Shown here piece by piece: positions 6,051 through 63,696 of a stretch of DNA of 64,000 nucleotides (the stretch's first letter is position 1; each line of letters begins with the position of its first letter). The notes beneath the pieces are model-generated. The model ran no database searches. It was not told the DNA's origin and saw only the letters and a list, made by a program, of their open reading frames with translations. A program made the position numbers and the translations under genes. Source of the stretch: Okamejei kenojei (Eukaryota); NCBI GenBank assembly GCA_035221665.1, contig CM069160.1, positions 4,092,001 to 4,156,000 on the forward strand, read 5' to 3'.

Positions 6051-8459
6051 TAACATAACCTTTAAAGTACCATTTTCGGAAGTGGTTCAGCTGGAGGAAT
6101 GCCGTGTTTTCTGAGAAATAACAACATTAAAAAAAAAGAATAATGCAAAACACTGATCGAAGGTACGAATCTGGCCAATAATGCAGACGCAAACTTCTAG
6201 CGCATGGGTAAAAAATGGGATGTCAAAGTGAAGAAGAATCCCAAAGTGAAACGTCGCCTGTCAGTTTACTTTCACTAATGCTGCCTGGCCCGCTGAATTA
6301 CTCCAGCAGGTTTTATTTTACTCAGTTTCCCAGCATCAGCAGTGCCTATTGTTTCGTCCAACATTCGCGTCTCGGACTAATCTGAATCCAAGTCACATCT
6401 CGCTCTGGTTACCTGCTGTGAATGTATTTATCCACTATGCCTGGAAGCCGCGGGAAAGTCAGGACGATATATTATCCTCCCCGCACTACATACAAAATCA
6501 TTGCGACCATTACTAACACCAGGCTTTTTATGTTTCGAAGATAGACACAAAAAGCTGAAGTAACTTAGCGGGACAGGCAGCATCACTGGGTAGAAGGAAT
6601 GGGTGACGTTTCGGGTTGAGACCCTTCTTCAGACGGATCTCCAGGTTGCCGAACACTTCCTTTTTTCCGACACATGACTGTTTGTTTACTTCTGGATTGC
6701 CATTGGAAAACAATGTAAGGAACGGTATATTCATGTGAAATGGAAACGTGCTTGTAATATTTGTTGGAATATTCAGCGTTTGTAGCAGCAGAATATGTAG
6801 GAGTGAGCCAATTGATTGATGTATCTGAAGGTCAGCACAGCGGAGCAGCTGGTAGAGCCATTGCCTCACATTGGCAGAGAGCACGGTTCAATTCTGAATT
6901 GGGATGCTGTCTGTGTGGAGTTTGCATCTTCTCGCAGTGACCGCACGGTTTCCTCCAGCTGCTCTGGTTTCCTCCCACATCGTGAAGACGTGCCAGTTTG
7001 GAGCTTCATTAGCTTCTGTAAATTGCTCCCAGCATGTATGGAATGGATGTGAAAGTGTGATAACATAGAAATAGAAGTGTAATACATAGAAGTGGGATAA
7101 CATGAAGGGAATAGATGAAGGATAGATGCGTATAGTCTTTTACCCAGAGTAAGGGAACCAAGAACCAGAGGACGTATGTTTAATATGAGAGGAGACTGAT
7201 TTAATAGGGACACGAGGAGCGACATGTGTTCATACAGAGCAAGGCACATATATGGAATGAGCTGCCAGAGGGGTAACTGAGGAAGGTACAAGAACGACAT
7301 TTAAAAGACACCTGAATACGCGGATGGATAGGATATGTTTTGGGGATATGGGTCGAAAGTAGGCAGGTGGGTCTTATAGATTGGGCATCCTGCTCGGCAT
7401 TGGCAAGTTGCGCCGAAGGGCCTGCTTACATGCTGTACTTAAGAAAAAGTAATTATTCGTATTTGCACCATCACAGTGTTAGCAACAAAGTTGATCCCAG
7501 GCCAAAATACCTCAGGGCACGGATAAACGCGGGAATTTATTACCGAGATAACGATTACACAATTGTACGCCTTAGACCTATCCTCGTCTCATTTATTGTG
7601 TTTCTTCAGTAAGGTATCACATGAGCAAAATGACGCTGCGTTTATTTAAAAGCTTTGGATTCGAAGGGAATCAAACACTTTTTTTGCAGGAAGGTTAAAC
7701 TAGGTTAAATTGTCCTTTACGAAATCCAGTGAGCCTCTCCTTCGTATTTTCCGTCAACAATGCACAACACAATGCAATGTCAAATTACAGGCAAGGTTGA
7801 ACAAACGGGACACCTGCAACCGTGACTTTCATTCTGTACAGCCATTGAACATCCCCATATCCTTCACCTTCCGAGGGAACCCGATCCCTTCCGGTCCCCT
7901 TCATGGGTTGCCATAAAGAACTCTTCAACAGGGCTGAATAAATACACACAATACTGGAGTAACTCAGCGGGACCGGCAGCATTTCTGGATGGGTGACTTT
8001 GCGGGTCTAGAACATTCTTCTTCAAAAGGGTGACTAGTTTTCAATGGGTGTGCGAACTCCGTAGCCGACTTAAATTACTAAAGATCTCTGTTGCTCTGGT
8101 CGAGAATCAGTCTAACCCGCGTGCGTGCATGGGATCTTGAGTAAGAAGATCCCATGGTGATGGATTCTACAGGGTTAATTGATGAGGCTTCGGTGAACAT
8201 GTGACGGGCTGTTGCCAGTGTGATTTAGCTTCCTATATATTAGGATAAACTCTTACTTTGGGTCGGAAACGGCAAGTCTTTACCAGTACCACTATGACAA
8301 AATAAATCGTTTTCAACTAATGGGAATATAAATGCAACTTGAGTTAAGAATTAATTCAGTTTTTAATATTAATGAATATCAACAGAATTGTGATGGAAAG
8401 GAAGTCCAGTGACAGTGGAAAGAACAATCAGACGGAGATATTTCAACGTTTTGGTTTAA

Positions 8460-9020
8460 GTTTAGTTTGTTGTCACATGTACCGAGGTACAGAGTACAGC
8501 TTGTGTTACGTGCTTATCAGTCAGCAGAAAGCCAATATATGATTACCATCGATGCATTATCAGTGTATATACATGGTAAGGGAATAACGTTCAGTGCAAG
8601 GTAAAGCCAGCAAAGTCCGATCCAGGATAGTCCGAGGGTCACCAAAGAGGTGGGTAGTAATTTTGTACTGCTCTCTGGTTGTAGTAGGATAATTCAATTG
8701 CCTGATAACAGCTGGGAAGAAACTGTCTCTAAATCTGGTGGCGTACCTTTTATCTCTTCTATACCCTTTGCCTGATGGGAGAGGGGAGAAGAGGTAGTGG
8801 CCAGCGTGGGACTCGTCCTTGATTATGCTGCTAGCCTTGTGGAGGAAGCGTGAGGTATGGATTGAGTCAATAAAAGGGAGGTTAGTTTGTGTGATGGTCT
8901 GGGTTATGTCCACAATTTGCTGCAATGTCTTACCGTCTTAGATGGAGCTGTTCCAAAACCAAGCTGTGATGCATCCTGATAAAATGCGTTCTATGGTGCA
9001 TCTGTAGAAGTTGATGCGAG
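8460..9020 (-). mobile_element. Rex1/Babar- or L2-like LINE 3' fragment in the GPCR1 intron
   Basis: ORF 8560-8925 ...KASSIIKDESHAGHYLFSPLPSGKGYR...RFRDSFFP; related fragments at 32500-33015, 45880-46780, 63130-63695. Confidence 0.7.
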
Positions 9021-9059
9021 TTAGTGGAAATTAACTTTCTTTAATCTTTTTATTTGTAG

Positions 9060-9965
9060 CAAATTTGCTGGCAATTGTAATTTTCTCCCGTGGAAACTGC
9101 GGACTCTCGAAATGCATCACTCGTTACTTGGTGGGCATGGCTGTGGGCGATTTCATGGTCCTGATAACTGAAGTGATCCTCTATGAGATTGTCAACGGCT
9201 ACTTCCCATTCTCGATATTCAATCACACCCCATTCTGCAGATGGAACCTTGTGGTCCACATTTATTTCCATCGACTGCTCGGTTTGGATAACTGTGGCCT
9301 TCACTTTGATCGGTTCACTGCTATATGTCATCAGTCCTTGCGGACAAGTATTGCACTGAAAAGACGGCAGCTGTGGTGATAATGGTGTGTTTCCTTAAGC
9401 GTTTTGCAGAATGCGCCATTTTACTTTATATACGAACCGCGAGAAATAATTGACAATATAGAGTGGTCCTGTTATGTAAAGTCAACGTTTTATACGTTAT
9501 CCATCTGGGTTGTATTCTTGTGGATGGGAAACCGTGTTAACAACTATTTTCCCTTTTGTGTTAATTTTGTTGCTCAACTCATTCAACAATCAGGCACATT
9601 ATCCTGGCAAATAGAGTGAGGCGAGTGGACTCCGAGCAAACAAACAATCTGAGAAGCACACTGATGCCGAGATGGAGAACAGAAGGAAATCAATAATTTT
9701 GCTTCTCGCTATTTCTGGCAGCTTTATTTTGTTGTGGATGGTTATTTTTATATATTACATATATGTGCAATTTACTGACACACAGTTTTTAGAAGCAAGT
9801 TACAACGACCCATTCACCATAATGGAACAAACTGGATATATGCTGCGGTGTTTGAGTTGTTGCACAAACACTATTATTTATGCAGTGTCCCAGAAGAAAT
9901 TTAGAGAGGAAGTTAAGAATATGGTTAAAGCTCCTTTCATTCTCATTACGAATGCAATCAAATAG
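9060..9965 (+). pseudogene. Exon 2 of GPR139-like GPCR gene 1, frameshifted (pseudogene or assembly indels)
   Basis: tttgtag acceptor; SRGNCGLSKCITRYLVGMAVGD, TFDRFTAICH, RRKSIILLLAISGSF, SCCTNTIIYAVSQKKFREE spread over at least three frames; colinear with 42761-43662. Confidence 0.85.
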
Positions 9966-11129
9966 GTTTGACACAAAACCTGGAGTAACTCAGTGGGGCC
10001 GGCAATATATCTGGGGAGAATGAATGGGTAACGTTTTGGGTCGAGACCCTCTTTGACTGGCTTCATAAAATGCATTACTTTATCGAAAATAGACTTGAAT
10101 AACTTTCTGCTGGAGTAATTCATTGGGACAAGCAGCATCACTGGATAAAAGGAATATGTCACGACCTGAAAGGTCACCCATTCCTTCCATCCAGAGATGC
10201 TGCCTGTCCCGCTGAGTTACTCCAGCAATTTGTGTCTACCTTCGGTGTAAGCCAGCATCTACAGTTCCTTCCAACACATGAATAACTTCCTTGTTGTCCA
10301 CATGGACGTTATCCCAGTAGCTGTGTACATGGCACTCCTGAGAGTGAATATGGCTGACATATGTTATCATATCGACAAATGGTTTGAAACATTACAGAAC
10401 AACCCTGTACTAATAAAATATAGATTAGCACAGCATAGCAACATTACCCTCGGCCTATGACTTCACTGCTGATCATGACATCCAGTTAAACTAATGTCCT
10501 CTACTTGCGCATAACCCATGTTTCTTCCATTCGCTGTATGTCTATGCACTATTCAAACGTCTCACAAACACCACTATAATATGTGATTCCATCACTAGCA
10601 CAACCAGCATGTTCCAGGCACCCACCAATATCAGTGGAAAAACCACACAAAGATGTTTAAACGATGCCCCTCTCACCTTAAAAACCTAGTCCTTTAATAT
10701 TTGACATATCCACCTTTGGGAAAAGTTGAAACAAATAAGCAATATATAATTAATGATGGAAATCAATTAATGCTAGGATCGGGGAAGGAAGATGGGGTTA
10801 GTTTCCTGAATTGTGTATATTGTGAGTCTGTTGGTATCTAAAATTATATTTGGGGAAACACACAGATATTCTTTTCAACAAGCAACATTTTTATTTTCAC
10901 CTGTACTTCACCGGACTAGTGCATGTGACACTACATCAAATTGACTTGAACTTTCAGACATAACTAATGTCAATTTTGTAATGCATTTCCACCTCACCTC
11001 CTGAAATATAAATTGAATTTAAAAGTGACGTGTCTTTACTTTCATTGAAAACTGACAATGTGGAAAATCATTCCCTGTAATAAAGTAGCTGTTCTAATAT
11101 AAAATTGATGGCTTTATGGACAAGTTTAC

Positions 11130-13400: not shown

Positions 13401-13451
<51 letters not shown>

Positions 13452-14179: not shown

Positions 14180-14650
14180 ACCAGAATAAGCCCTTGGTAT
14201 AAGCCTGGGCGATCGTTTCGCTGAACGCCTTCACTCATTCCGCCTGGACCAAGCTGATCTCCCGGTTCCCAAACACTTTAATTCCCCTTCCCTTTCCCAC
14301 ACTGACCTTTTTGACCTGGCCTGCCTCCTTTTGTCAGAGTCAAATGAGAGAAACAACATCTCATATTTCACTTGGGCAGCTTACAACCAGTGGTATGAGT
14401 ATTGAGTTCTCTAACTTCGTAACCCCTGCATTCCCTCTCCCTCCATCCCTCCCCCACCCAATACTAGCTTCAAAGGGCTTAAATCTCCACTGTACTCTGC
14501 TAACGCAAACTGACAAACAGCTAACAATGACCTATATTATTCGTTAGCATATCTTTCATGATTTGTTATTTATCTCTCTGGCATCACCGCTATATCTCTC
14601 GTTTCCCTTTCCCCAGTCTGAAGAAGGGACTCAACCCTGAAAATGTCACA
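14180..14650 (+). mobile_element. Penelope-like element 3' fragment (GIY-YIG end) followed by hammerhead-like pLTR
   Basis: ctgggcgatcgtttcgctgaacgcc...cactttaattcccc matches 40100-40330 in reverse; CTGAAGAAGGG..GAAA at 14618. Confidence 0.7.
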
Positions 14651-17600
14651 TTTCTTAGAAAAACATAGAAAAAAGGTGAATGATGAGGCTTCGCCCCCCA
14701 ACGAGCCAGCACCGCCATTCAAAATGATCAGCTGATCTTCGGCAATAACCCGCTTCTCCCCATCCTGACTCCACTAGTCCCTAGAGGAACAACTTTCTCT
14801 TAAATCAATCCAGAGATTTGGCCTCCACCGCCCTTTGTGGCACGGAATTACATAATTCACAACTCTCTGGGTAAAACGGTTTTTTCAGTCTGACCTCCCT
14901 TTATTCTGAGACTGTGGCCACTGGTCTCACCCAAATTGGGAACATTTTTCCTGTCATCATAGCTTGTCCAGTCCTTTTCTTTTATAAGATGCTAGTATGA
15001 CTGGTGTGTTACTCCATCTTTTCCTTTATTCGGCGTAAAACTACAGGTTGCAAAAGGGTGGTTAATAATAATTATGTATGGTGCAGTGAGACCTATTTGT
15101 CGACAATTGATGCGTAACTGATAGGAAGAAGCTTTTTGTAAAATTACATTGTGTCACTGCCCCTTAGCATCTTGCCTCTTGCGGTCAATGTTACAGTCAT
15201 CTGCCATTGCTGTCCTCAGATTTATTTTATTGTACAAATTGGAACAAAACAAAACTGATGCTGATCATCCCGAATGTCAATAATTCTTCCCTCCCCCACA
15301 GAGCTGCTCACCGCTGATTTCCCCTTCCAGCAATTATTAGAGGCATATAGACCGTCACAACTGATTTCCCCAGGTTGGAAATGCCCAACTTTAGTGGCCA
15401 GCGCTATAAAGTGAAAGGGGGGAAGGTTTAATGGAGAAGTGGGGGGCATGTTTCTTTATACAGTGTGGGGGCCAGGAACGCATTGTATGGGTGGGGGTAG
15501 TACAGATATGATAGTAGGATTTATGAGGCTTTCAGATAGGCACATTGAAATGCGGGTAATAGAGGGATATGTATCAAGTACAGGCAGATAAGATCAGTTT
15601 AAGTTGGCATCATGGTTGCCACAAACATTGTGGGCCAAAGAGCCATTTTTGTTATATTCTTCGTTTAGTTTACTTTTGTTTAGTTTTAGAGATACAGCGC
15701 TGAAACAGGCCCTTCATCCTACTGAGTCCGCGCCGACCAGCGATCCCCATTCACCAGCACCATCCGACACACGAGAGACAATTGACCATTGTTTTTACCG
15801 AAGAAAATTAACCTACAAACTCGTATGTCTTTGTGGAAAGAAATCAGGGCTCCCGGAGAAATCCCATGTGATCACGGGGAGAATGTACAAACTCCTTACT
15901 GACAGCATCCGTTGTCAGGATCGAACCCGGGTCTCTGGCGCTGTAAAGCAGCAGCTCCACTGCTGCGCGCTTGTGTCACCCCTAAATATGTTCAATATTC
16001 TATTACAGCATCTCCAATCTCTTATTAACAATCTCTCCCACAATGTCAACAAGATGAAGTTGAAGGAGCTAGTGATCGACTGCTGGAAGGAAGATGGTGT
16101 ACAAGCCCAAAGCTTCTGGGATGCACCGCAGTGGCAGTAGAACATTACCGCGGAACGCCCCACGGAACCCAACACGAATCGACCAGGCGGCTGCCGAGAA
16201 CATCCCGGCGGGCCACTGAAATCAAGGACAGACTCGGCAGCCGCCGAGAACAAAGATGGACTCGGCCGGTCGCCTGCAGCCACATGCGCCGGCAGGCTTG
16301 GTTCGCCGGTGTGAAGAGCAGCCCGGTGGAAGCTGCTGAGCTTGGCCCCGAAGCCCGCAGAGTCGAGGAGGAGGAAGCCACTGCCGCCAACGGACGCAAG
16401 GAGTGGGCAACTAAGAGAGGGACTGAGGTATTACCTCCAGCGCTTTCAAGGTTGGCCGAAGGAGTTGTCTCCCTGGACACAGAGCCATTTGGGCGAGGAG
16501 AGGGACGTTGGTTGGCGGGCTGAGCTGGTCGAGGGTGATGGAGGAGGTCCTCCAGTAGCCTGGGGTTGAACTGGGCTTACCTGGATCGGGGGCGCTGCAG
16601 TACATCCAACATATGGACGGGACGTGGGACTTCGGACTTTTTCTTTTTCTTTTGTAAACACTGTCATATTATGGCGACGGGTGCAAGAATGTCACTGTGC
16701 AGTGCATGAGTGACAATAAAGAACCATTGAAACATTGAATTCAGAATCTATATAACTTCAGATAAGCCAGATTTAGAATATTGTGTGCATTTCTGGTTGC
16801 CCAAATGCAGGATGACTTTGGAAGCATGGAATTGGTGCAGAGGTAGTATGCCAGAATGATGCACAGATTAGATATTAGCTAGAAAGAGAGGTTGGACAGA
16901 CCTGGGTTGAAATCGCTAGAATGCCACAGGTTGATAAAATTATATAACATTATGAGAGGCATAGATAGGATAGAGAGTCAGAACATTTTACACAGGGTGG
17001 AAATATAAAGTAATGGAGGGCATAGCTTTCAGGTGAGTGGGACATGGTGTAAAGTGCCATGTATTAATAGAAGGCTCAATGAGAGATTTTTGCGCTGATG
17101 TTGAGTATGCTACACTTTTACACCAATACACATCTTTAAACTGAGCTCATGTCTCTCCTCCCAGCTGAAAAAAAAAGATGCATGGTACTGCTTGGAATAA
17201 GGGAAATTCTTACACGTCCGTTGACCAATTGTTATTTCTTAAGCAATACCGGTAAAATCGACAAAAAACAGGCACAAAAAGCTGGGGTAACTCAACAGGT
17301 CAGACAACACTTCCGGGGAAAAGGAAATTGTGACGATTTGTGTCGAGACCCTTCCCGAAATGTCGCCTATTCCTTTTCCCCAGAGATGCTGCCTGACCCG
17401 CTGTGTTACTCCAGATTTTTGCATCTGCCGACAGCAAATTTGAACCTGCAGTTTCTTCCTACGCAGACTACGTGGTTTATCTAAAACTGCTGTTTGTGGA
17501 ATTGACTGCATTCTGAATTGTTAAATAGTAATACTTTGCGAAACATCTATTCGGCTGTAAGATGCTAAGTGAAATGTGATTTTGTATTTGTTGTCCTAAA

Positions 17601-17926: not shown

Positions 17927-17978
17927 ATGCTTCTTTTTACCTTACTGAACACTTACGGTTTGGCCACAGTCTCCTCTG
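17927..17978 (+). CDS. MHC class I-like gene, exon 1 (leader MLLFTLLNTYGLATVSS)
   Basis: aacATG, hydrophobic signal-peptide-like 17 aa, G|gtaagc phase-1 donor, in frame with the alpha1 exon. Confidence 0.75.
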
Positions 17979-18914
17979 GTAAGCAATGCTGCTTCTACTT
18001 GTGAACTTTGAGGAAACAACAAAACTGATTCTATGTTCTGTTGCACAGTCCCTGTGATTGCCCTGGGTTCATTGTCTTGGTTGTATAAATTGAATTATTG
18101 AATTGAATGTATTAATAATTTTGGGTAAAGGTCATTCCTGAGTTGTGAAGGCTCCAGTGATAAGTTATATATACTATGGTTACCTTGGCAATCCATTGAA
18201 GAGAAGAAATGAATACAGGTAAATAATGAATATAGAACATAGGACAATACAGCACAGGAGCAGGTCGTTCAGTCCTTTACTGCGAAGAAAGGTCTTGACC
18301 CGAAACGTCACCTATTCCTTTTCTCCAGAGATGCTGCCTGACCCGCCAAGTTACTCCAGCATTGTGTGTCTACCTTCGGCCCACAATGTCTGTACTGAAC
18401 AAAATAAACTAATCTCCTCTACCTGTATGTGATCCGTATCCGGCCATTCCCTGCCTATCTATGTACCTATCTAAAAGCTTCTGAAATGTAACTGTTATAT
18501 CTGCCACCACCACCCCCCACTGGCAGCGCATTACAGGTGTCGACCACCTTCCACATAAAACAACTTGCCCCGCTCATCTCCTTTGAACATTGCTTCCCCT
18601 GCATTAAAGTGATGTTCTCTGGTCTTCAACATTTCCACCCTGGGAAAACGGTTCTGACTGTCCACTCAGTCTGTGCCTCTCACCATTTTATGCACTTTCA
18701 TCAGGTCTCCCTATCACCTCCAGTATACAAGATAAAACAATCCATGTTTGTCCAATCTGTCCTTGCACTAATTCCTCAGACAGAATTCAGGTAAACCGAT
18801 GATGTGCACTTTCAATAAAGAAGCGACTTCTTCATTAGTAGGTGTCTCACCTCTCCACGATTTCCTCAGCTGGTGTTAGACACGCAAATTATGGTAAAAC
18901 TCAGGCTGCATTAA

Positions 18915-19190
18915 ACATAGAAACATACAAACATAGAAAATAGGTGCAGGAGGAGGCCATTCGGCCCTTCGAGCCAGCACCGCCATTCAATATGATCATG
19001 GCTGATCGTCCGCTATCAGTAACCCGTGCCTGCCTTCTCCCCATATCCCTTGACTCCACCAGACCCTAGAGCGCTATCCAACTCTCTCTTAAATCCTTCC
19101 AGTGATTTGGCCTCCACTGCCCTCTGTGGCAGGGAATTCCATAAACTCACAACTCTCTGGGTAAAAAAGTTTTTTCTCAGCTCATTCTTA
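18915..19190 (-). mobile_element. CR1 LINE 3' end
   Basis: (catagaaa)n tail plus conserved 3' UTR in reverse; similar copy at 35433-35828. Confidence 0.85.
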
Positions 19191-20439
19191 AATCTTTATT
19201 CTAAGAATGAACAATCAATGTTGTTTTAATGTTGTAGTTATCTTGTTCTATTTGCTGCATGCTTCCTCTCCTGCAGACCCACTCCATTACCCCACCAACA
19301 CTTCCCCAGAAGAGGATAATGACATTTAAGACGCTTGAGGATAGGCACGTGCATATGCAGGGAATTGAGGGATATGAATCATGTACACGCATGAAGAGTT
19401 TAGTTTAACTTGACATCATGATCGGCACAGACATTGTGGCTGAACTCCAGCCCACTACACCCTTAATGAACAAAAATCTATCAATCTCAATCTGGAAATT
19501 TTCATGTGGGCAACATATTAAACAGATCACAGAATCGAGAACCAGAGGACATAGGTTTAAATTGAGGGGGGAAAGATTTAATGGGAATCTGATGGGCAAT
19601 TTCTTCCCACACAATGGTTCCGTTCTAACTATTCTGACATTCGTCAAGGCTTGGAGATTACAAACCTGTAATCGGATGCTCGTCCTCAAAGTTTAATCAC
19701 ATTGTTATCAGATGAAAGTAAATATGATGGTGATTGCCGTGTTGAAATAATACCATATAATACAAAAATCCTTGGCTATGGAGTATTTTGGGAAGTTACA
19801 TGGATTTTATCATTACTGTATTCCACGCTTAGCATTCTTATGTTTCTCCTGGTAACACTGAAACAGACATTTCTGACTCTCGCTTTGGGGCCCCTTCTCA
19901 CCTGACTTAAACACATGGACTTTGACACTGTCTGGTGTGTTGCCTGTAATCTATATCACAGAACAAATATTGCGTGTTCATGTGGAAACAAGAAACTGCA
20001 CATGCTGGTTAATACACATAACATGCTGGAGTAATTAAGCAGGTCGGGCAGTATGTCTGGAGAACATGGATAGGTGATGTTTCAGTTTAGACATCAGCTT
20101 AGATGTGCAAGAAGGAACTGCAGATGCTGCTTTAAACGAAGATAGACACAAAAAGCTGGAGTAACTCAGCGGGATAGGCTGCATCTCTGGAGAGAAGAAA
20201 TGGGTGACGTTTTGGTTCGAGACGCTTCTTCAGACTGGTGATGCAGATGCTGGTTTACACCGAAGATAGACACAAAAAACTGGAGTAACAGCTAGTCAGG
20301 CAGCAAGGCTGGAGAAAAGTAATAGGTGGCGTTTCAGGTCAAGGCACTTTTTCGGATAGAGACGGGGGTGCATATCTGTCATTAATATGTCCTATGTACC
20401 TTTTCGTATCACTTGGTTCACTGTCTCCTGATTCTCAGT

Positions 20440-20470
20440 CTGAAGAAGGGTCTCGACCCGAAACGTCACC
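20440..20470 (+). ncRNA. Minimal hammerhead-ribozyme motif in pLTR-derived repeat (best copy)
   Basis: CTGAAGA A GGGTC-TC-GACCC GAAA CGTC acc: CUGAnGA core, stem II, GAAA, palindromic ACGU, GUC cleavage triplet. Confidence 0.7.
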
Positions 20471-20900
20471 TTTTCCTTTTCTCTGGAGATGCTGCCTGAC
20501 CCACTGAGTTACTCCTGTATGCTGTGTTGAGTTTCCGTTTAGACCTTGTTTATTATAGCCGCCTCCCAGACCAAGGCATATATTGACCCCCCCCCCTGAT
20601 AATCGGGACTCACCAGCAAGATCTCCTTTACACTTACTGCTCCAATTTACAGAATCTCAGTGTCCTCATAAATCAGAATTGTCCCATTCCATGCAAACAT
20701 TTCTTACCAGATGGGCGTTTCAGTGTTGTAGCCCATAGAGATGCTATCTATGAGGACATGGACTTAATCCTGATCTCGACTACAACTTGTGTGGCATGTT
20801 TATTATTTCCCTGAAACCATGCGTGCTTCCTCTGGTTATACCAGTTTCTCCCCACATCCCAAAGAGAGGTAAATTGGCCAGCGTGAATTGATCGTTCATA

Positions 20901-23141
20901 CAGTGCCCTCCATAATGTTTCGGACAAAGAACAATCATTTATTTATTTGCCCCTGTACTGCAGAATTTGATAGTTGTCATATAAAAACTCAAATGTGGTT
21001 AAAGTGCACTTTGTCAGATTTTAAAAAAGGCCATTCTTTTTCATGTTGGTTTCACCATGTAGAAATCACAGCAGTGTTTATACATAGTCCCCCCATTTTA
21101 GGGCACCATAATGTTTGGGACACAGCAATGTCATGTAAATGAAAGTAGTCATGTTTAGTATTTTGTTGCATATCCTTTGCATGCAATGACTGCTTGAAGT
21201 CGATGATTCATGGACATCACCAGTTGCTGCGGATCTTCTCTGGTGATGCTCTGCTAGGCCTGCATTGCAACCATCTTTAGCTTATGCTTCATTTGAGGGC
21301 TAGTACCCTTCAGTTTATTCTTCAGCATATAAAAGGCATGCTCAGTTTGGTTCAGATCGGGTGATTGACTTGGCCACTCACAATTTACATTGTTTTAGCT
21401 TAGAAAAGCTCTTTTGTTGGTTTAGCAATATGTTTCGGATCATTGTCTTGCTGTAGTATGTACCGCCGGCAAATATGTGTTTTGAGGCATTTGTTTGAAA
21501 TTGTGCAGATAGGATGTGTCTATACGCTTCAGAATTCATTATGCTTCTACCATCAGTAGCTGAATGTTCAACAAAGCTAAGTAAGCCAGTATCTTCAGCA
21601 GCCATACGTGCCCAGGCCACAACCGCACTACCGTGTTTCACAGGTGAGGTGGTGTACTTGGATCTTGGGCAGTTCCTTATCTCCTCAATATTTTTGTTCT
21701 TGCCATCACTATGATATGTTAATCTTCGTCTCATCTGTCCATAAGACCTTTTTCCAGAACTGTGGTTGCTCTTTAAAGTACTTCTTGGCAAACATTAACC
21801 GGGTCATCCTATTTTAGCGGCTAAAAAGTGGTTTGCATCTTGCAGTGTAGTGTCCGTATTTCTGTTCATGAAGTCTTCTGCGGACAGTGGTCATTGACGA
21901 ATCCACACTTGACTCGTGATGAGTGTTTTCTGATCTTCGGACAGGTGTTTGGGGATGTTTCTTTTTAACAGAGAGAATTCTTCTGTCATCAGCTGTGAAG
22001 GTGTTCCTTGGCCTGCCAGTCCCTTTGCGATTAGTAAGCTCACCATAGAACCATAGAAACATAGAAAATAGGTGCAGGAGGAGGCCATTTGTCCCTTCGA
22101 GCCAGCACCGCCATTCATTGTGATCAGGCTGATCGTCTCCTATCAATAACCCGTGCCTGCCTTCTCCCCACATCCCTTGACTCCACTAGCCCCTAGAGCT
22201 CTATCTAACTCTCTCTTAAATCCATCCAGTGACTTGGCCTCCACTGCCCTCTGTGGCAGGGAATTCCATGAATTCACAACTCTCTGGATGAAAACGTTTT
22301 TTCTCACCTCAGTCTTAAAAGACCTCCCCTTTATTCTGAGACTGTGTCCCCTGGTTCTGGACTCGCCCAACATTGGGAACATGTTTCCTGCATCTAGCTT
22401 GTCCAGTCCTTTTATAATTTAATATGTTTCTATAAGATCCCCCTCATCCTTCTAAACTCCAGTCAATGCAATCCTAGTCTTTTAAATCGTTCCTCATATG
22501 ACAGTTCCGCCATCCCAGGGATCAATCCCGTGAACCTGCGCTGCACTGCCTCAATTGCAAGGATACCCTTCCTCAAATTAGGAGACCAAAACTGTACACA
22601 CTACTCCAGATGTGGTCTCACCAGAGCCCTATACAACCAGAGAGCACCAGTGCTCTCTTTCTTCTTAATGATGTTCCAATTGGTTGATTTTGGTAAGCCT
22701 AACGTTTGGCTGATGTCTTGAACAGTTTTATTCTTGTTTCTCAGACTCATAATAGCTTCTTTGACTTTAATTGGCACAATTTTGATCCTCATGTTGATAA
22801 ACAGCAATACAAGTTTCCAAAGGTGTTGGAAAGACTAGGTGCTGAGCTCTCTGATACTCTGCATTAAGGAGGCATTTAAATACCCAAGAGCAATTATATA
22901 TACCTGTGAAGCCATGTGTCCCAAACATTATGGTGCCCCGAAATGGGGGGATTATGTATAAACACAGCTGTAATTTCTACATGGTGAAACCAAAATGTGC
23001 AAGAAATACCCTTTAATAAAATCTGACAATATGCACTTTGACCACATGCGATTTTTTTTCTATTACATATCTCAAATTGTGGAGTACAGAGGCAAATAAA
23101 TAAATGATGGGTCTTTGTCCCAAACATTATGGCGGGCACTC
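20901..23141 (-). mobile_element. Tc1/mariner transposon with IR/DR-type long TIRs and decayed DDE transposase
   Basis: TA flanks (20899-20900, 23142-23143); ~220-bp TIRs starting CAGTGCCC with internal direct repeat ccataatgttt(g/c)ggaca; transposase motifs GRPR, WTDETK, QQDNDPKH, WPSQSPDLN. Confidence 0.92.
22045..22638 (-). mobile_element. CR1 LINE 3' fragment nested inside the Tc1 transposase
   Basis: catagaaa tail; LYRALVRPHLE; splits the transposase between KKESTG and ELTNRKGTGRPR. Confidence 0.9.
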
Positions 23142-27278: not shown

Positions 27279-27490
27279 GTAAGTGGCAAGTCAATGAATC
27301 TGATCACTTGAGACCAGACACCTCCTGGACTGACATAACAGCGTCAACTCACACTCTTATCTAATCTGTGGATTTAGACTTTCCACTTTAGAGATATGGT
27401 GCAGGAACAGGCTCTTCAGCTCACTGAGTCCTTGCCGAACAGAGATCATCCCGTACATTTACACTATCCAACGCACTGGGACAATTTACA

Positions 27491-44024: not shown

Positions 44025-44057
<33 letters not shown>

Positions 44058-46513: not shown

Positions 46514-49355
46514 CGCGCCGCCATTAATTCCATCTACACTTCCCGCTGCTCTGGTAAAGGCCCACACACCCTGGTCATTACCTCTTCTCCTCTCTCCCAT
46601 CGCGCTGATGATATAAAAGCTTGAAACCACATACCATCTGATTCAAGAACCTGGCTGTTATCAGATTACTGAATGGTTCTCCTACAAGCTCAGGATATAG
46701 TTCAGTTCTTCCAATCTTCCTTGTTATACCCCTTGAAGCATTCATTTCCAATCTGCGCTTTATTTGTGGCTGTAACATTATATTCTGAATTCAGTTCGCT
46801 TTCTATTTTTGCATTGCTCGTTGTACGGATGTCGGGTACGATTATACTCGTGTAAAGTATGAATGGCATGGGCAATTTGTGAAACAGTATGTCGATACAT
46901 GAGATAATGGTAATCCACTACTAATACCAAGACTGCTCATTGTCGATAAAATATAACTGTTCCACCTCTGCACCATTTTTCTATCCTACACTCCATGTGT
47001 CTTAATTTCTTAGGGCACATAAATCTTCAAATCCCTTTATAGGAATAAACAAGGCCTGAATCTCCAGGGCCTTCCAGGGTAGAGAATTCTGAAGACTTTA
47101 TTTCTCTATCCGTTGCATCTTACAAGGAGAAAGGATTGTTTTCTTATCTTAGTCGTAAATGCCATGCCCAATTTTCTAACACTCTCTCTGACTGGGTCTA
47201 GACTACTCTGCCACAGGAAACATATACCCTACAAACAAACAAACGAGCACCTTCAAAAAGTTCCAAAGAGATCATGTCTTTTTTTTTTAATTGAAGGGAA
47301 TGTAGTGGTCTACTCAACCACTCCTCACTGACCTAACCCACCATTCATACAATCTTATAAATATTCAATTCATTTATTTCAAAAATGGCTAGAATACAAA
47401 ACAGGGATGTAATGTTGAGGCTCTATAAGGTGCTGGTCAAGCCGCATTTGGAATATTGTGAGCATTTTTGGGAACCATATCTGAGGAAGGAAGGATATGC
47501 TGGCTCTGGAGAGGGTCCAGAGGAGGTTTACAAGAATGATCCCAGGAATCAATGGGTTAACATGTGATGAGCGTTTGATGGCACTGAGGTATAGAATGGG
47601 GAACCTCGTTGGTACTTACAAAATAGTGAAAGGCGTGGATGGAGTGGCTCTGGAGAGGCAGTTTCCACTAGTGGGAGAGTCGTGGACTAGAGGTCATAGC
47701 CTCAGAATTAAAGAACATTCCTTTTGGAAGGAAATTAGGAAGAATTTATTTATTTAGAGCGTGGTGAATCTGTGGAATTCTTTGTCACAGAATGCTGTGG
47801 AGGCCAAGAAAAAAAAGGTAGATTCTTGATTAGTACGGGTGTCAGGGGTTATGGGGAGAAGGCAGGAAATGGATTAGGAGGGGGAGATACATCAAACATG
47901 ATTTAACGGCGGAGTAGACCTGATGGGCCGAATGGTCTAATTCTCCTCATATCACTGATGACCATATGACCTTATTCCTTCCCGTACATACACTGTTAGG
48001 TAAGAGATCAAACACTTATGGTTGTCACAGAGCACCAAATAAGGTAGGTAGGGTGGACAGATGGGAACAGTATGGAGGAGTGCGTGGTTGATGAAAGTGG
48101 GTGGAATTTCTCCATTATCAGGGTTCAGAACGGTCTTTCCATAAACAAGGGTAAGTATGATTCCCTATGCATCCATTATTTTTTAAACATTGTGATAATG
48201 CCGGCTTCAACTACCTCCTCTGGCTGCTCGTTCCACACACCCAACTCCCATTGTATGAAAATGTTACCCCTCTGGTTCCCATTAAATCTTTCCCCCCTCA
48301 CCTGAAACCTATATCCTCTGGTTCTCGATTCCCCAAGTCTGGGGAAGAGACTGTGAATCTACCCAATCAATTCCTCTCTTGATTGTGTGCTCTTTGAAAG
48401 GATTACCCCTCATCCTCCTGCGCTCCAAGGAAGAGAGTCCTAGCCTGCTCAACCGCTCCCTATAGCTCAGGTCCTCGAGTCCTGGCAGCCTCCTTGTAAA
48501 TCTTCTCTGCATCCTTCATCTTGCTCCAATGCAAGGCAACTTTCTTCCTCTACACGAGAAAAGTTTCACCATCACTGGAGATACAATGGAGAGAGTGAAA
48601 CTGGGGGAATAAAATCGGCAAATTATAGGAAGCAGTTGGGAGGAGATGAACAGAGAACACAGAAAAGTACAGCACAGAAACAAGCCCATCGACCCACAAT
48701 GTATGTGCCGAACGTGATGCCAACGTAAACTAATTTAATCTGCCTGCACGTGATCCATAGCCCTCCATTCTCCACATATCCATGTGCCTTGTTAAACGCT
48801 TTTTTTAATGTCTCTTTATTGCAGCTATCATATAGTTGAGATAGCTGTGTCTGTCATTGTTAGATTATCACATGGTCGGCTGCTCTGGAAGGTTATTATG
48901 CACGGGATCAAAGGAGAGGTAGCCGAATGAATAGAAAATTGGCTTCTAGCAAGCAAAGGGTAATGGTGGAAGGTTGCTGTGACTAGCTGTGTGACTCAGG
49001 ATTCAGTGCTGGGCCTGTTACTGTTTGTCTTGTATATCAATGATTTGGATGAGAACATACATGGCAAGATTACGAGTCGCAGGTCGACAAGGTGTGCAAA
49101 AAGGCTTTTGGTACATTGGCCTTCAACAGTCTGAGCATTTGAGTATAGAAATGAGGTCATGTTGCAGTTGTATAAGACGTTTGTGAGACCACATTTAGAG
49201 TACAGTGTTCAGTTCTATGTTGCAGGAAAGATGTTGTCAAGCTGGAAATGGTGCACAGATGACTTATGAGGATATTGCCAGGACAGAGAGGATTCACGAG
49301 GATGTTGCCACAACTAGAGGGTTTGACCAAGAGGGGGAGGTTGAGTAGGCCGGTT

Positions 49356-52375: not shown

Positions 52376-55300
52376 AGTATGTGGTGCTGTTCCTCCAGTT
52401 GTCTCACTCTGGCAATGGAGGTGGCCCCAAGACAGAAAGGTCAGTAGAGGAATGTGAAGGGATGTTAAAATTGTCAGTAGCTAGGAGCCCTAGCAGTTCA
52501 TAGTCATAGAGTGATATTGCATGGAAACAAGTTCTTCGGCCCATCTTGCCACACCGGCCAACATGTTCCAGCCACATTAGTCCTACTAGCCCACGTTTGG
52601 CACATATCCCTTCAAACCTGTGATATCCATGTATCTGTCTTAAAAGTTGGAATAGTCCCTGCCTCAACTACCTTCTCGGGTAGTCCTGGCAGGTGTTCGG
52701 TGAAACAGTTGCCTAGTCTACATTTGCTCTCGTTGATGCACCGGGCGCCACAGCGGGAACATCAGATGCAGTCTTTTGGCTTAGGCCCCTTCGGTCATGG
52801 CTGACCATGCATGTATCCAGGCTGCTATACCCTATATGGAGGATGTCTGTGCGTGACTTTGTTTAACGTGGGGAGACTGACACACAGACAGCCACCCCAC
52901 GGTCCTTGATAGATCTGAGTCAGGATCCAGTGGAATGGAGTCAAAGACAACTGGAGACCCTTTTCTGCTACAGCCTTCATCCGCCTTCCCAGCCGTTGTG
53001 ATGCTCCACTAACGTCAGCCAGATCAGTTGATAGTCTGTCGCCTGTGATGGAGAAGAAGAGATCAAGAAAGGAGAATGATGCTCAATGTTTCAATGGGAT
53101 CAATACTGTTTTCTTTGTCACATGTGCAACTACACATTTTTTTTGCATATATTACACATGCGGGCGCCACCATGTTGTGGCGCCATTATTGAATGTTCAA
53201 AGTCCGGTCGGTCCGTCCGCTCGTTGTACTGGAGCACTTACCACGAGCCAACATCCCTCTCCTCTCCTGGACATCTCTGTGTCCCAGGAACGGCTCCTGC
53301 AGCCGACCATTAAGGTGCTGGAGGCAATACCCCGGTTCACCCTTCTACCAGCCCACGCTCCTCACATGCAATGTCCCCAGCTCCCTCCCGGTTACGCCGT
53401 CCGATGAGCCTTTGGGCAGGGTACCTATCCTGCCTCAGACGTGTCTAAGGAACTGGATAAATAAGCCCCCTTCCACCACCCTGGTTTCACCAGTTCTACA
53501 GTTCACCTCAGATTCTTGAGGTCACACCTTCCCAGCCAACAATAGACCAACGAAGATTCAACCCTGCTTTAGGTTCTTTGTTGCTGACCCTGATTTGTTC
53601 TGGTCTTTTCTCTCCTCTGGCTCTCACCCCACCCCCTCCTTTCAGTCTGAGTCCCGACACGAAATGTCACCTATCCTTTTTCTCCAGTGATGCTGCCTGG
53701 CCAGCTGAGTTACTCCAGCACTTTGAGTCTATCTGTGGTATGAACCAGCATCTGCAGTTCCTTGTTTTTACAAGAACCAGCGGACATAGATTTAAGGTGA
53801 GAAGAGAAAGATTTAATAGGAACCTGAGGGGCAGGTTTTTCAGAAGATGTTGGGTATTTGGAACCAGCTGCCAGAGGGGGTGGTTGAGGCTGGTACTGTG
53901 ACATTTAAAAATACATTTGGACTGGGACGTGGATAGGAACAGATTAGAGGGATATGGGCTGAACGCGAACAGGTAGATGGGACATCTTGGTCAACATTGA
54001 CGAGATGTGCCGAAGGGCCTGTTTCAGTGCTTCAAATTCAAATTCAATGAAAATAAAATAAAACATATGTAGGAAAGGACTGCAGATGCTGGTTTAAACC
54101 GAAGATAGACACACAAATACGAGATGCTCAGTTTGAAGGTCTCGACCCGAAATGTCACCTATTCCTTTTCTCCAGAGATGCTGTCTGGCCCGCTGAGTTA
54201 CTCCAACTTTTTGTGTCTATCTTCGCTTTAAACCAACATCTGTAGTTCCTTCCTACACATTCTGTTTGCCTCTTTCACTGGCGCTGCAGCGCTGCCCGCC
54301 ACGGAACTCCCCCAGTAGCGACACTGTCGGCTGTGGCCGGTGGGGCAATACATTCAACTTCCAGAGAAAACAACAGCGGTCTCCATGCGGGCAGAATCAA
54401 AAGCTGCCAGTACCGAGTGAAACCTCGCCACAGATGAAGGCAACTTGAGGTGCGGTTTTGTAACGACTCGTACTGCAACCCCGAGCCCCACTCAGGTACG
54501 GCGCGACCCAACACATGTCGGGATATACAGCGGGTTCCGAAGCTGGAACTTGCAAGCTGTAAACATGGCGTGTACACAAGTCTTTAACTGAATACACGCC
54601 TTCCCATGAGAAGGAGTCAGTTGCATTAGAAGTAATCAGCTGCATTATACTAAATCCACACCCGAGCAGTTTGCATCTTCCAGCGAGAAAAGTTATTTTA
54701 TTTGCAATGTTCGAGTGAGTTCATTCAACCCTCGATATTTTTTTACACGCTCGAAGATCGTCTTTTTGCGATCAAACTGCAAAAATTGGGCCCCGGGCTG
54801 AAGTGAATCAAAGGCCTCTTGTAACTTTTTAACGACCTTGTGTAAAATGGCGCTTTAAATAGTAACTCAGGCGCACACTGTAAAGCCGTGTTTGAACATG
54901 TAGTCTGGGCTCGGACTGACCCGGGACACTCTAAGACAAAGTTATCTGGGAACTGGTAGAAAGCGGACCACACTCAATAAAACGATCATTATAGCAAGCC
55001 TGAATGGATACAGGCGCTGAACTTTTCAGATGACACTAATTGTGTTATAAGTTTAGAGAGCTATTTTTACAGAGGCCAATTAACCCACAAACGTAGCTTT
55101 CGGATATGGGAGAAAACCCACGCAGTCACAGCGAGAAAGTGTAAATGCTACATATACGGCACCCGAGGGCAGGCTCGAACCCGGGACCGTGGCGCTGTGA
55201 GGCAGCAGCTCTATCAGCTGTTCCACTATGCTGCCCTCACGGAGCAAACCGTCCAAACGTGTCTTCCCTGTAAACAGGTCACGACACTGTTCTGTTTCAG

Positions 55301-56996: not shown

Positions 56997-57629
56997 CGGG
57001 CCTGTCCCACTTGGCGATTCCTTCGGCCACTGCCGGTATCAGTGACTGACTTATCAGGTCATCGAAAAATTTGCGGCGTGATGACGTATGATGCGGCGGT
57101 GATGTGGCGTGATGATGTATGATGCGGCGTGATGACGTATGATGCGGCGGTGACGTGGCGTGATGACGTATGATGCGGCGGTGACGTGGCGTGATGACGT
57201 ATGATGCGGCGTGATGATGTATGATGCGGCGTGATGACGTATGATGCGGCGGTGACGTGGCGTGATGACGTATGATGCGGCGGTGACGTGGCGTGATGAT
57301 GTATGATGCGGCGTGATGATGTATGATGCGGCGTGATGACGTATGATGCGGCGGTGACGTGGCGTGATGATGTATGATGGGGCGGTGACGTGGCGTGATG
57401 ATGTATGATGGGGCGGTGACGTGGCGTGATGACGTATGATGCGGCGGTGACGTGGCGTGATGATGTATGATGGGGCGTTGACGTGGCGTGATGACGTATG
57501 GCACACGGTGTTTTTTCAAGTGACTCAACTTTTTTTTGTCGCTGCTGGATTTTGAAATGTTCAAAATCTTTTGGCGATACTGATATGACGCCGGCAGTCG
57601 CCGAAAAATCGTCAAGTGGGACAGGCCCT
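56997..57629. mobile_element. PIF/Harbinger-like non-autonomous DNA transposon (MITE) with internal minisatellite
   Basis: ~38-bp TIRs GGGCCTGTCCCACTTG(G/A)CGATT...CTGCCGG; TAA on both flanks (56994-56996, 57630-57632). Confidence 0.82.
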
Positions 57630-59299
57630 TAACTAACAGATGAACGACACTGACCATTCGACTAAACACTTTCACACAGATCGCACTCTGAACACACAGC
57701 TGATAAAGCAGCTTCTTTATCTCTACAGGATAATTAGGATGTATCAAGTACCAACCTACGATGTGGCGCTAATTGCTCACAGTTTTGTCTGGGTTCTGAT
57801 CAGTTGTGACCTTGAGTTCACAAGCTAGTCCTTGTCTCTGTGTTCCGCAGACTTGTTTTCGAGCGGTTGATTTTTTTATATAAACTAACCCCAACAATTC
57901 TCTGCAAACCCTTTCAACCGTTCCCTATTGTTCCCTACCCCCCTCTATTTTTCCTGCAATTTAAGATAAGGTTTGATGTCTGCAATGTTCCATGAAGGAA
58001 GGTCTTTGTTCTGTAACATCAATTCTGTATTTAATTCTCAACGTTTACTGCCTGATCTGCGCATTAACAGCAATTTATTTAGCAGTTTAGTTTACAGATA
58101 CAGCGTGGGAACAGGCCCGCCGAGTACACGCCGACCAGTAATTACTCCTACACTACAGTGCAGAGGGTGGCACAGAAGTGCAGCGGTAGAGTTGCTGCCT
58201 TACAGCGCCAGAGACTCCAGTTCGACCTTGACTACAGGTGCTGTCTGCACGCAGTTTGTACAGTATGTTCTCCCTGTGATCGTGTGGGATTTTTCCCGGT
58301 GCTCCAGTTTCCTCCCGCATTCCAATGACATGCAGATTTGTAGTTTGATTGGCTTCTGTAGATCGACTCTAGAGTGCAGGATAGAACTAGTATGGATGAT
58401 TGCCGGTCCACATGGACACGGTGGGCCAGAGGGCTTGGTTCACGCTGTGTCACTAAACTAGAATATGGGCACAGTTAATGCAGGATTTGAAGGCCTGAGC
58501 TACAGGGAGAGATTAGGTTGGGTAGGACGTTATTCCTTGCAGTGCAGGGGGCTGAGGGGTATCTTTTATAGAGCTGTTTACAATGATGAGGGGGATAGAA
58601 ATTGTGAATGCACAGTTTTTTTGTTTCCCATGATAGGGAAATGAAGAAATAGGGACATCGGTTTAATGTGAGAGGGGATAGACAATAGCAGCCTGTGGGG
58701 AAATATTTTTACACCGAGGGTGGGACGTTCCAGGTGAAGTGATTGAGGCGGGTACAACAACAACATTCAGAAGGCATTTTAATAGTTGCATGGATAGAAA
58801 ACATTTGGAGGGATGTGGGTCAAATGCAAACAAATGGATCTAGCTTAGATGAGGCAGTTTATTGGGCTTGGGCAAGTTGGGGCACATGGCTTGTTTCCTT
58901 TGAAGTTAGGCACAAAATGCAGGAGTAACTGAGTGGGACAGCCAGCATCACTGGATAGAAGGAATAGGTGACATTTTGGGCCCTGAAGAAGGGTCTCCAC
59001 CCTAAACGTCACCCATTCTTTCTATCCAGAAATGGGCCTGTCCCATCAAGTCATGCCAGCATGTTGTGTCTATCTTTGGTGTAAACCAGCGTCTGCAATT
59101 CCTTCCTACACGTGGCATGTTTCCGTGCCATATGATTCTGACTCACTGATGATGAATGTCTAATTGTTAGAAATGCAGTGGAAATTAATTTCATTGAAAT
59201 TTGTCAGAACAGAGTATGTTATGCCACAGGGAAAACTTGAAGATTCAATTTTGTGGGAATTGGTTTATTGTTCAAAGTTTTGATCAGGTTAATGGTCCG

Positions 59300-61960: not shown

Positions 61961-62374
61961 ATGGCCTCCCTACCACCCCTTGGTAGACTCTTCAGCGAGG
62001 TGACCTGCTCCATCTGCCTGGATTTCTTCCAGGAGCCAGTGGCCCTGGAGTGCGACCACAACTTCTGCCGGCTGTGCATCTCACGGAGCTGGGAGAAGGG
62101 CGACGCCTTCTACTCCTGCCCCGAGTGCAGGGAGGTGTTCAAGGAGAAGAGGTTGAAGCCCAACCGCATGCTGGCCAACATTGTGGAGGGCGTGAGGGAG
62201 CTGAAGCTGGAGCCCCGCCAGGGACAGTCGGCCTTCTACTGCCAGCGGCACGAGGAGAGGCACAAGCTCTTCTGTCTGGAGTGCCAGGGTGTCATCTGCG
62301 TGGTTTGCTCTTGCTCCAGTGAGCACCAAGGCCACGTCATCATCCCCATCGAGGAGGCTTACATCCTATACAAA
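61961..62374 (+). CDS. TRIM-family E3 ligase, first coding exon (RING + B-box2); the rest lies beyond the window
   Basis: C3HC4 RING CSIC..CDHNFCRLC..CPEC, PNRMLANIVE, B-box CQRH..CLEC..CVVC..HQGH; acceptor ccacag at 61920, donor AAA|gtaagt. Confidence 0.93.
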
Positions 62375-63696
62375 GTAAGTTTCTTCAAAGCGTCAAACAG
62401 CATGGAGACAGGCCCTTTGGTCCTACATCTGAAGAAGGGTCTCAATCCGAAACATCACCCATTCCTTCTCTCCAGAGATGCTGCCTGTCCCGCTGAGTTA
62501 CTCCAGTTGTTTATGTTTCCCCTTTGTCCTATGTATCCATGCCAACCTATATAACCCATCTAAGCTCGTCTCATTTGCCCGTGTTTTGTATCTCTCAAAA
62601 CCTGTCCAACCATCTTTTAAATTGTGTTTTAGGTTTAGGTTTATTATTGTCACATGTGCCCAGGTACAGTGAAAAATATTGTTTTACATGCTGTCCAATC
62701 AAAATCAGATCAACGTTAGATATTAGAGATATAGCACGGAAACAGTGCTATATTTCACCCACCAAGTCTGTACCATCCAGCAATCACCCCTCACACTAAC
62801 ACTATCCTACAGACCAAGGATAATTTTATAAGTTACCAAAGCCAATTAACCTACTAACCTGTATGTCTTTGGCGTGTGGGAGGAAACTCACGCAGTCACA
62901 GGGAGAATGTACAGATTGTGTAGAGACAGCATCTGCAGTCATGATGGAACCTGGATCTCTGGGGCTGTAAGGCAGCAACCCTATCTCTACGCCACTGTGC
63001 TGCCCGCATAATACTCCACATAAATACACTCGTCAAACTCGGGTATAATATGTGGAGTGAAGGGAAAGATACAGAGGGCAGAGTATAGTTTTCCACATTG
63101 TAGCGCAACAGTTTCAGAGACAATGTCCAAGGTCTACAATGAGGTGGAGCAAAATCAAACTGTGCCCTGCCTCATGGAAGGGCCATTGAGAAGCCTGATA
63201 CCACATGGGAATAAACTTTGCTGAGTCGGGTAGTGTGTACTTTCAAGCTTCTGTATCTTCAACCCAACGAGGAGAAGAAGGAAAGAGGGGGGTGCAACAT
63301 TCTTTGATTATGTTGACTGCTTTCCCGAGGCAGCATGATGTGTGGATGGAGTCACTAGTGGGGAGCTTAGTCTTCATTTCTTTAGCAAGAGGGTGATGAA
63401 TCTGTGGAATTTATTGCCACAGACAGCTGTGGATGCCATCATTGGCTATTTTTAAAGCAGAGATTGATAGATTCATGATTGGTAAGTGCGTCCAAGGTCA
63501 CAGGCATGAGAATGAGGTTGAGAGGAAAAAATAGATCAGCCATGATTGAATGGCAGAGTAGACTTGATGGGCTCAATAACCTAATTCTGCTCCCATGTCT
63601 TATGGTCTGTGTGATGGAGCGGGCTGCTTTTTACAATTACTTGCAGTCATGGGCAGAGCTCTTCCCAAACCAAGCCATGATGCATCCCAACAGTAA

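Follow-up and report, generated by a model that had tools for sequence, protein, structure and literature searches.

Penelope-like elements (PLEs) carry minimal type I hammerhead ribozymes, in which helix I typically has 4-5 bp, and 2 bp in D. virilis (PMC4209133). Head-to-head pairs of copies, one-sided tails and target-site duplications (TSDs) are published PLE features (rotifer PLEs in PMC3846280; PMC8557442). For an anole PLE, internal priming at two sites, with extension of both strands and an uncut template, was shown in vitro (PMC11167929), and self-priming has been published as an alternative for head-to-head pseudo-long terminal repeats (pLTRs; PMC3846280). In vertebrates, only Neptune and Poseidon PLEs were found by Li et al. 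(bioRxiv 2026.07.22.740005). Here, we analysed a 64,000-nt stretch of the skate Okamejei kenojei (contig CM069160.1, positions 4,092,001 to 4,156,000), hereafter called the window, in which the original prediction had described a very abundant short repeat family carrying a minimal hammerhead and linked to PLEs. This repeat is almost certainly the ~133-nt terminal repeat of an autonomous PLE.

All 15 of the sites that had been listed for the window were family members, with minus-strand coordinates a few bases out. Scanning of the 64 kb detected more copies than this list, namely, 51 with a profile built from 10 window copies and 53 with a second profile. Reversed sequence of random samples, used as the false-positive control, gave 0 copies. 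An exact 34-mer occurred 7,876 times in the 2.757-Gb genome (control, 0), and a 24-nt core occurred at least 54,056 times. Density was estimated in 118 evenly picked 10-kb stretches (1.179 Mb, 0.04% of the genome), which contained 542 copies compared to 0 in the reversed control. This sample gave 460 copies per Mb (bootstrap, 400-520) and extrapolates to ~1.27 million mostly decayed copies, or 4.3% of bases, genome-wide; the predicted very high copy number was thus confirmed. Copies are about twice as dense in the window as in the genome on average, and at least 8 copies were present in 19% of the sampled stretches. A literature search, with subscription papers, Repbase and Dfam outside its scope, returned no description of the family in cartilaginous fish, and none of copies starting jointly at the edge of the hammerhead; the family may be listed in the supplements of the Li preprint, which are closed.

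The repeat is assigned to a pLTR end because it closes elements encoding reverse transcriptase (RT) and endonuclease (EN) and opens the next open reading frame (ORF) in tandem units. Several of 30 loci picked for the exact motif ran upstream into GIY-YIG coding sequence. An RT query taken from one motif-picked locus gave 37,643 first-look candidates, of which 150 were scored. Of 20 loci selected because their open frames were long, 19 had a sense copy of the repeat ~1.4 kb beyond the RT match. Moreover, 75 of 90 EN C-terminal matches were followed by the repeat within 450 nt, via untranslated regions (UTRs) of ~100 or 237 nt, in a set biased by the picking of loci for the motif or RT, some of them twice. 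Searching with the 5' region of the element recovered copies in which the repeat runs on into the next element. Tandem repeat-RT-EN-repeat units of 3,962 and 3,969 nt were observed in locus L171, with similar arrangements in L174, L175 and L179, the repeat doubling as the 5' leader of the next ORF in these ~3.96-kb units. With +1 set at the A of AGTCTGAAGA, the repeat forms the first 133 nt of this leader, followed by the main ATG at +167, and an upstream ATG lies at +54 (L171). The L171 leader (856-1030) holds a 41-codon upstream ORF starting at +54 and a donor-like AAG/GTATGC just before the main ATG; splicing or translational control through these sites is possible.

The element protein carries RT and EN in one frame, with DKG and YIDD motifs plus a GIY-YIG domain at the C terminus. 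A 727-amino-acid open frame in L122 matched RVT_1 (E 2e-6) and then GIY-YIG (E 0.002), both below the Pfam cut-offs, and L012 gave a GIY-YIG match above the cut-off. In agreement with the GIY-YIG connection proposed for two window copies, the repeat at 39998(-) follows an EN remnant (40110-40503) and that at 14615(+) follows another (14205-14392). The one-frame RT and C-terminal GIY-YIG, tandem or partial-tandem pLTRs, an inverted truncated copy, a one-end tail and a TSD place the element among EN+ PLEs. The EN has a CxxC and two His residues, and the RT-EN linker reads CNRKKCNTC, in line with the CCHH of the EN and the CX2-5CxxC linker that characterise the Neptune clade; this CX4CxxC type therefore indicates a Neptune or Nematis element under the criterion of PMC8557442. 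The element is likely of the Neptune type, with two points counting against that label: it comes from linker and host range rather than from an RT tree, and the linker is common to Nematis. At the element 3' ends in L121-L140, the short end of the youngest subfamily often reads TAACCCT, part of the vertebrate telomere C-strand; this is probably due to chance and is not conserved in other subfamilies.

We then considered the ends of the 542 sampled copies. The 3' ends clustered near +93/+104 and at +126-134, the difference being an optional tail. As for the 5' ends, 194 copies started inside the repeat, 268 at its 5' edge without a UTR match, and 76 extended into the UTR (4 were dropped at a stretch edge). 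Thus, 268 of the 344 copies that reach the 5' edge of the motif stop there. The chance of ending per nucleotide was ~8% at this edge, compared to 0.3-1.5% for positions within the repeat and 0.4-0.8% for those of the UTR. In 104 well-aligned solo stubs, the match to the element dropped from 0.89 at +5 to background by -3, and the upstream base composition was that of background, versus strongly pyrimidine-rich in 57 UTR-bearing copies. The edge reads YCAGTC (C-A(+1)GTC), which we take to be Initiator-like. If RT copies a cap, a G is expected just upstream, as known from L1. Among the first 100 listed copies with a match stopping at +1, 44 had a G at -1 (27% expected, P = 3e-4; scored by eye, all on contig C1), and so did 37 of 84 once UTR mutants and junction overlaps were dropped (P = 8e-4, among the copies listed, contig C1). 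Only 8 of the 542 copies started at 30-34, around the predicted cut site. We therefore rejected cleavage-defined 5' ends and concluded that cleaved RNA is not the template, as in the anole element.

Copies lying within 50 nt of each other were mostly head-to-head: there were 81 such pairs, compared to 4 tail-to-tail and 20 tandem ones. In 54 of 60 classifiable pairs, a long arm was combined with a short one (P = 4e-11). Within each of the 33 pairs that could be typed, the two arms came from one subfamily, and arm identity was 82%, with shuffled partners giving 75% (71 pairs). Direct repeats of 10-19 nt, consistent with TSDs, were present on the flanks of 36 of the 81 pairs and of 30 out of 134 solo stubs (2.9% under the null). 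Since the arms share subfamily and identity and are flanked by TSDs, each head-to-head pair represents one insertion, and the long/short asymmetry is explained by two-site internal priming, which extends both target strands. An Rfam scan of the window gave no hammerhead family among 16 weak matches (E <= 5), which were mostly microRNA (miRNA) models on fold-back pairs; annotators should be aware that head-to-head pairs produce such false matches. At 38984-39241 of the window, a palindromic array of short pieces of the CCCGCTGAGTT segment of the repeat likewise gave weak miRNA and CopA matches.

We consider it probable that the stubs, which are most of the copies, are separate short insertions, for which the PLE protein initiated reverse transcription ~100 or 133 nt inside its RNA and ran off the 5' end, located at the A before the core. 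Transcription would start at the Initiator-like C-A(+1)GTC, on the A that immediately precedes the core of the hammerhead. Stubs would then result when the 5' copy of the repeat is used for priming, and 5'-truncated copies bearing UTR and ORF when the downstream copy is used. Both nicked target strands would be extended, their cDNA ends would join by microhomology, and the template RNA would stay uncut at the hammerhead. Because most copies reaching the edge stop at an Initiator-like site with an upstream G excess, the stubs likely copy the capped 5' end of the RNA after internal priming. Somewhat more tentatively, and at a little under even chances, the ~1 million stubs may be cDNA of the capped first 100-133 nt, a dimeric protein priming at two internal sites, one per nicked strand, and running off the cap.

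Several observations weigh against this run-off from a capped start. The G excess at -1 was absent from a random sample (3 of 12), and G was also over-represented at +1, in 46 of 100 listed copies and in 32 of 85 without junction overlaps and UTR mutants (P = 0.075). Microhomology thus explains part of the excess, which is only suggestive given the negative random sample and the frequent G at +1. The boundary is a ramp from about -2 to +5 and not one base, and its CAG also resembles a 3' splice site. Among the first 100 young exact copies listed, scored by eye, ~52 enter the UTR, ~44 are without it and 4 are unclear, and the UTR library, made of a few dozen sequences, may miss old UTRs. Contigs (of guessed type) from RNA runs, aligned in eight comparisons, showed neither starts nor ends nor a clear splice joint, and none of the MHC exon joints. 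For Penelope of D. virilis, the transcription start lies ~120 nt upstream, and helix I is where an intron ends (PMC2377424, PMC4209133).

The stubs could instead be ordinary 5'-truncated 3' ends of elements, with RT stalling at the CAG owing to a protein-bound pyrimidine tract, a splice acceptor or a structure upstream, and with inverted arms made by self-priming or fold-back. The boundary indeed coincides with a pyrimidine tract and CAG in all UTR classes, several junctions overlap at CAG-N-CTG or at stem II palindromes, and both the D. virilis intron end (PMC4209133) and the self-priming proposed for head-to-head pLTRs (PMC3846280) fit such a stall. However, the stop site is identical for UTRs of ~100 and 237 nt, the stubs show no common upstream exon sequence, and the G excess at -1 argues in the same direction, as does, weakly, the finding that no GT..AG joint ends at the boundary among the 15 joints listed of 59. 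We thus regard stalling as rather unlikely.

The original prediction had seen in the repeat a distinct non-autonomous retrozyme-like family. This part was not supported, since the repeat ends nearly all the long-ORF RT loci, enters the next ORF in tandems, has one subfamily consensus for short and UTR-bearing copies alike and forms no short tandem arrays. It is very improbable that a separate retrozyme- or short interspersed element (SINE)-like family, with its own short self-cleaved or circular RNA, was mobilised by the PLE. The short units are discrete and TSD-flanked, pLTRs are the source of animal retrozymes, one chondrichthyan being among their hosts (bioRxiv 2026.07.22.740005), and a stub with an internal promoter could be re-transcribed. 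Nevertheless, same-strand runs of full copies within 300 nt comprised 509 singles, 15 doubles and 1 triple, rare arrays being possible outside the sample. Short and UTR-bearing copies showed no majority-base difference in three subfamilies; the fourth, with only 3 UTR members, differed at 9 columns. Moreover, the copies span the cut site and do not begin there, and the hammerhead is minimal, not canonical. Both the short tandem arrays and the independent lineage that define retrozymes in PMC7229834 and bioRxiv 2026.07.22.740005 were absent from the sample.

The identification of the motif as a minimal type I PLE hammerhead was correct, the motif agreeing with the minimal one of PMC4209133. The core lies at +4 to +10 and +24 to +27, base 9.1 is +11, and the predicted cut is after +31; helix II has 4 bp with a CUCG or UUCG loop, and helix III is the palindrome ACGU. 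All features of the minimal PLE form (CUGANGA, 9.1, helix II with G10.1-C11.1, GAAA, palindromic helix III, NUH) were present in the majority sequence and in 47 motifs detected by a relaxed descriptor in the 1.179 Mb (control, 0). All 47 belonged to the repeat family, against 542 copies, which extrapolates to ~110,000 descriptor-intact motifs genome-wide. Helix I had 0-1 bp in 13 of them, 2 bp in 29 and 3-4 bp in 5. Four of 53 window copies passed the descriptor (6632-, 20440+, 36171- and 39995-), and only those at 6632 and 20440 combined canonical stems with ACGU/GUC.

Over 256 copies spanning the motif, identity at the essential CpG C11.1/G12 was 0.70/0.73 versus 0.77/0.75 at a tail CpG, so that the copies decay essentially neutrally. 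Against this, identity at non-CpG core positions was 0.928 versus 0.904 for the base-matched tail (P = 0.01), an excess that is in part a selection artefact, as hit choice favours positions near the 5' edge. Variants between subfamilies spare the core, being limited to loop, wobble (A11.4 to G, A1.1 to G) and H17 C/U changes, which suggests constraint on the source elements. A check for stem covariation, which had been proposed, revealed no compensatory pair and has little power because the motif hardly differs between subfamilies; the GGGTTTCGGACC variant at 37433, offered as an example in stem II, is a mismatch. Energy folding of the leader or motif gave no significant structure (z -0.74 to 1.51 in 5 of 5 stretches). 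Both the alignment fold and 2 of 3 cluster folds contained a stem at about +51-59/+108-116, without covariation. The hammerhead arms scored -3.9 kcal/mol, compared to -5.5 when the monomer folded freely; for a dimer paired through helices II and III (helix I omitted), the score was -12.7 kcal/mol versus -21.1 for the free cofold. The hammerhead is a feature of the source element and is likely weak, requiring a dimer or protein, and in dispersed copies it is a passenger that decays neutrally. A metagenome pattern scan gave 40 loci, of which 0 matched the family profile. Ten of these loci (L243, L247, L251-L253, L265, L270, L272, L276 and L278) hold an unrelated minimal-hammerhead repeat with a 4-bp helix I, several copies of which lie head-to-head and are joined just before the core, as in the skate repeat.

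The features of the window are as follows (pairs are given without strand).
20437-20540, plus: stub lying sense in the predicted intron 1 of the MHC class I gene; its minimal hammerhead is intact (core 20440-20467, cut predicted after 20467) and has a 2-bp helix I.
6534-6634, minus: stub with descriptor-intact hammerhead, without upstream UTR, short 3' end.
14205-14653, plus: GIY-YIG remnant (14205-14392), pyrimidine-rich UTR and degenerate hammerhead cut short 3'.
39944-41050, minus: 5'-truncated PLE; RT thumb/linker/GIY-YIG remnant (EN 40110-40503) split by another repeat, short UTR, hammerhead 39998-39968.
62426-62520, plus: stub with broken helix III (GAAACATC), located in the intron that follows the TRIM RING/B-box exon.
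58884-59113: head-to-head pair (minus arm, then plus arm) with a mutated core G12, flanked by a 12-nt direct repeat that has one mismatch.
36059-36272: head-to-head pair, minus arm passing the descriptor with a U-G in helix III, 11-nt flanking direct repeat.
42409-42589: head-to-head pair cut short inside the motif; the hairpin behind spurious miRNA matches.
41956-42156: head-to-head pair, plus arm (42023) with broken stem II.
38196-38394: head-to-head pair, plus arm (38303) degenerate.
17246-17464: head-to-head pair, junction inside stem II.
10072-10280: head-to-head pair, first core strand missing in both arms.
26738-26884: head-to-head pair without hammerhead, just before the MHC alpha-3 exon.
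54066-54260: head-to-head pair, core deletion in the plus arm.
18277-18382, plus: stub with broken core (CTGCGAAGA), closest sense neighbour of the 20440 copy in the predicted intron.
19984-20362, minus: three antisense copies directly upstream of the 20440 copy.
37434-37562, plus: long-ended stub without C3, stem II mismatch.
44064-44194, plus: copy with short poly-C UTR remnant, helix III insertion.
63743-63973, plus: further PLE coding remnant, 79% identical to the 40-kb copy.
17927-17978, plus: predicted MHC class I leader exon MLLFTLLNTYGLATVSS with GTAAGC donor (sequence prediction); context, not repeat.

Two host genes bear on the proposal that self-cleaving motifs are scattered through introns. 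An MHC class I-like gene (17927-27290, plus strand) comprises a predicted leader exon and alpha-1, alpha-2 and alpha-3 exons (Pfam MHC_I, C1-set), and near it lies a TRIM-type exon with RING and B-box (61961-62374, plus strand). The 20440 copy is indeed intact, sense and situated between the leader and alpha-1 exons; intron 1 itself is a sequence prediction, since the leader exon is predicted. This copy has no intact sense neighbour, the one at 18280 having a broken core. The copy at 62429 is likewise sense, ~50 nt into the intron after the RING/B-box exon; its helix III is broken, reading GAAACATC. For most copies, the proposal is unlikely to apply, given 47 intact motifs against 542 copies, a helix I of at most 2 bp in 42 of the 47, and neutral decay of C11.1/G12.

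Hammerhead activity of intronic copies on host RNA is accordingly rated as unlikely. A stronger version, in which host pre-mRNA is cut by some intact intronic copies, acting as trans dimers or together with the PLE protein, so that expression is altered, for example that of the MHC class I gene, appears highly unlikely indeed. It could draw on the extrapolated number of intact motifs, on the intact sense copy at 20440 and on the anole PLE hammerhead, which cuts once protein is added (PMC11167929). In contrast, helix I of the 20440 copy has 2 bp, the hammerhead fold is disfavoured in monomer and dimer alike, the sense neighbours in the intron are broken, and core CpG decays as fast as tail CpG; PLE minimal hammerheads showed no monomer and low dimer activity in PMC4209133.

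Other observations concern the surroundings. Two degenerate DIRS-like elements (RT, RNase H/methyltransferase-like and tyrosine recombinase) lie at 877-2700 (-) and 28000-31720 (+) of the window. CTGATGA...GAAA motifs at 1085(+) and 30536(-), antisense to the coding frames of these elements, failed the descriptor and were rejected. Single-exon frames of rhodopsin-family G protein-coupled receptors were observed at 42761-43729 (-), open for 322 amino acids, and at 9035-9965 (+), broken. Minisatellites occupy 34620-35270, 45924-46600 and 57049-57510, with units of ~75, 17 and 20-31 nt, respectively. Outside the window, an exon in L135 (oriented 2760-3020), directly upstream of a PLE insertion, resembles the C terminus of an IL-17 cytokine.

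Compared to described systems, the motif matches the minimal type I PLE hammerheads of Cervera and De la Pena 2014 (PMC4209133) in its core boxes, extra base 9.1, G10.1-C11.1 and palindromic 15.2-16.2 without loop 3. Those motifs, too, are mostly single and derived from truncated PLEs, with opposite-strand pairs nearby. Helix II of 4 bp and helix I of 2 bp differ from the 7-8 and 4-5 bp in S. mansoni (PMC4209133), and the ~110,000 intact motifs compare with ~4,000 in coelacanth and ~9,000 in Xenopus (PMC4209133), counted with differing descriptors. One of the two supplement files of PMC4209133 contains no shark or skate term.

The element resembles EN+ PLEs of the Neptune/Nematis type (Craig et al. 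2021, PMC8557442; Arkhipova et al. 2013, PMC3846280) in RT with C-terminal GIY-YIG, CX4CxxC linker, tandems and heavy 5' truncation, as well as in the adjacent inverted copy, 30-40-bp one-end tail, TSDs, solo pLTRs and Inr-like pLTR sequence. Unlike those PLEs, it has a long Pro/Ser/Thr-rich N-terminal region, its TSDs are 10-19 nt versus 8-10 nt in rotifer PLEs (PMC3846280), and stubs dominate, having in common a 5' boundary that falls at the edge of the hammerhead. PAc, a Poseidon element of the anole (Frangieh et al. 2024, PMC11167929), is similar in its hammerhead at the pLTR-ORF junction, two 3' ends ~30 nt apart and uncut RNA template. However, PAc belongs to the Penelope/Poseidon clade, unlike the likely Neptune-type element here, and its ORF starts in stem II with priming 111-118 nt into the ORF, whereas the main ATG at +167 lies past both 3' ends of the skate repeat. 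With non-LTR retrozymes (Cervera 2020, PMC7229834; Li et al., bioRxiv 2026.07.22.740005), the repeat shares a type I hammerhead, a pLTR relationship and dispersed monomers; retrozymes, by definition, form tandem repeats of 150-450 bp, have hammerheads that are mostly canonical and give circular RNAs, whereas the bulk here are singles or head-to-head pairs.

Since both the motif and the insertion architecture have been described for PLEs, this is not a new ribozyme system. What it offers is scale, with PLE terminal repeat making up an estimated 4% of a vertebrate genome, and mechanism: the integration cycle of PLEs, which is poorly understood, becomes testable through the fixed ends, the one-sided tails and the long TSDs. 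A run-off mechanism is likely, as judged from the copies themselves. If run-off from the cap is true, the genome is an in vivo record confirming internal initiation, which has so far been observed in vitro for a single lizard element, and it places the transcription start of a vertebrate PLE 3 nt before a hammerhead that, if activated, would decap its own mRNA. The less ordinary feature with respect to the known systems is the common stop at the 5' edge of the motif, which likely marks the start of the element RNA.

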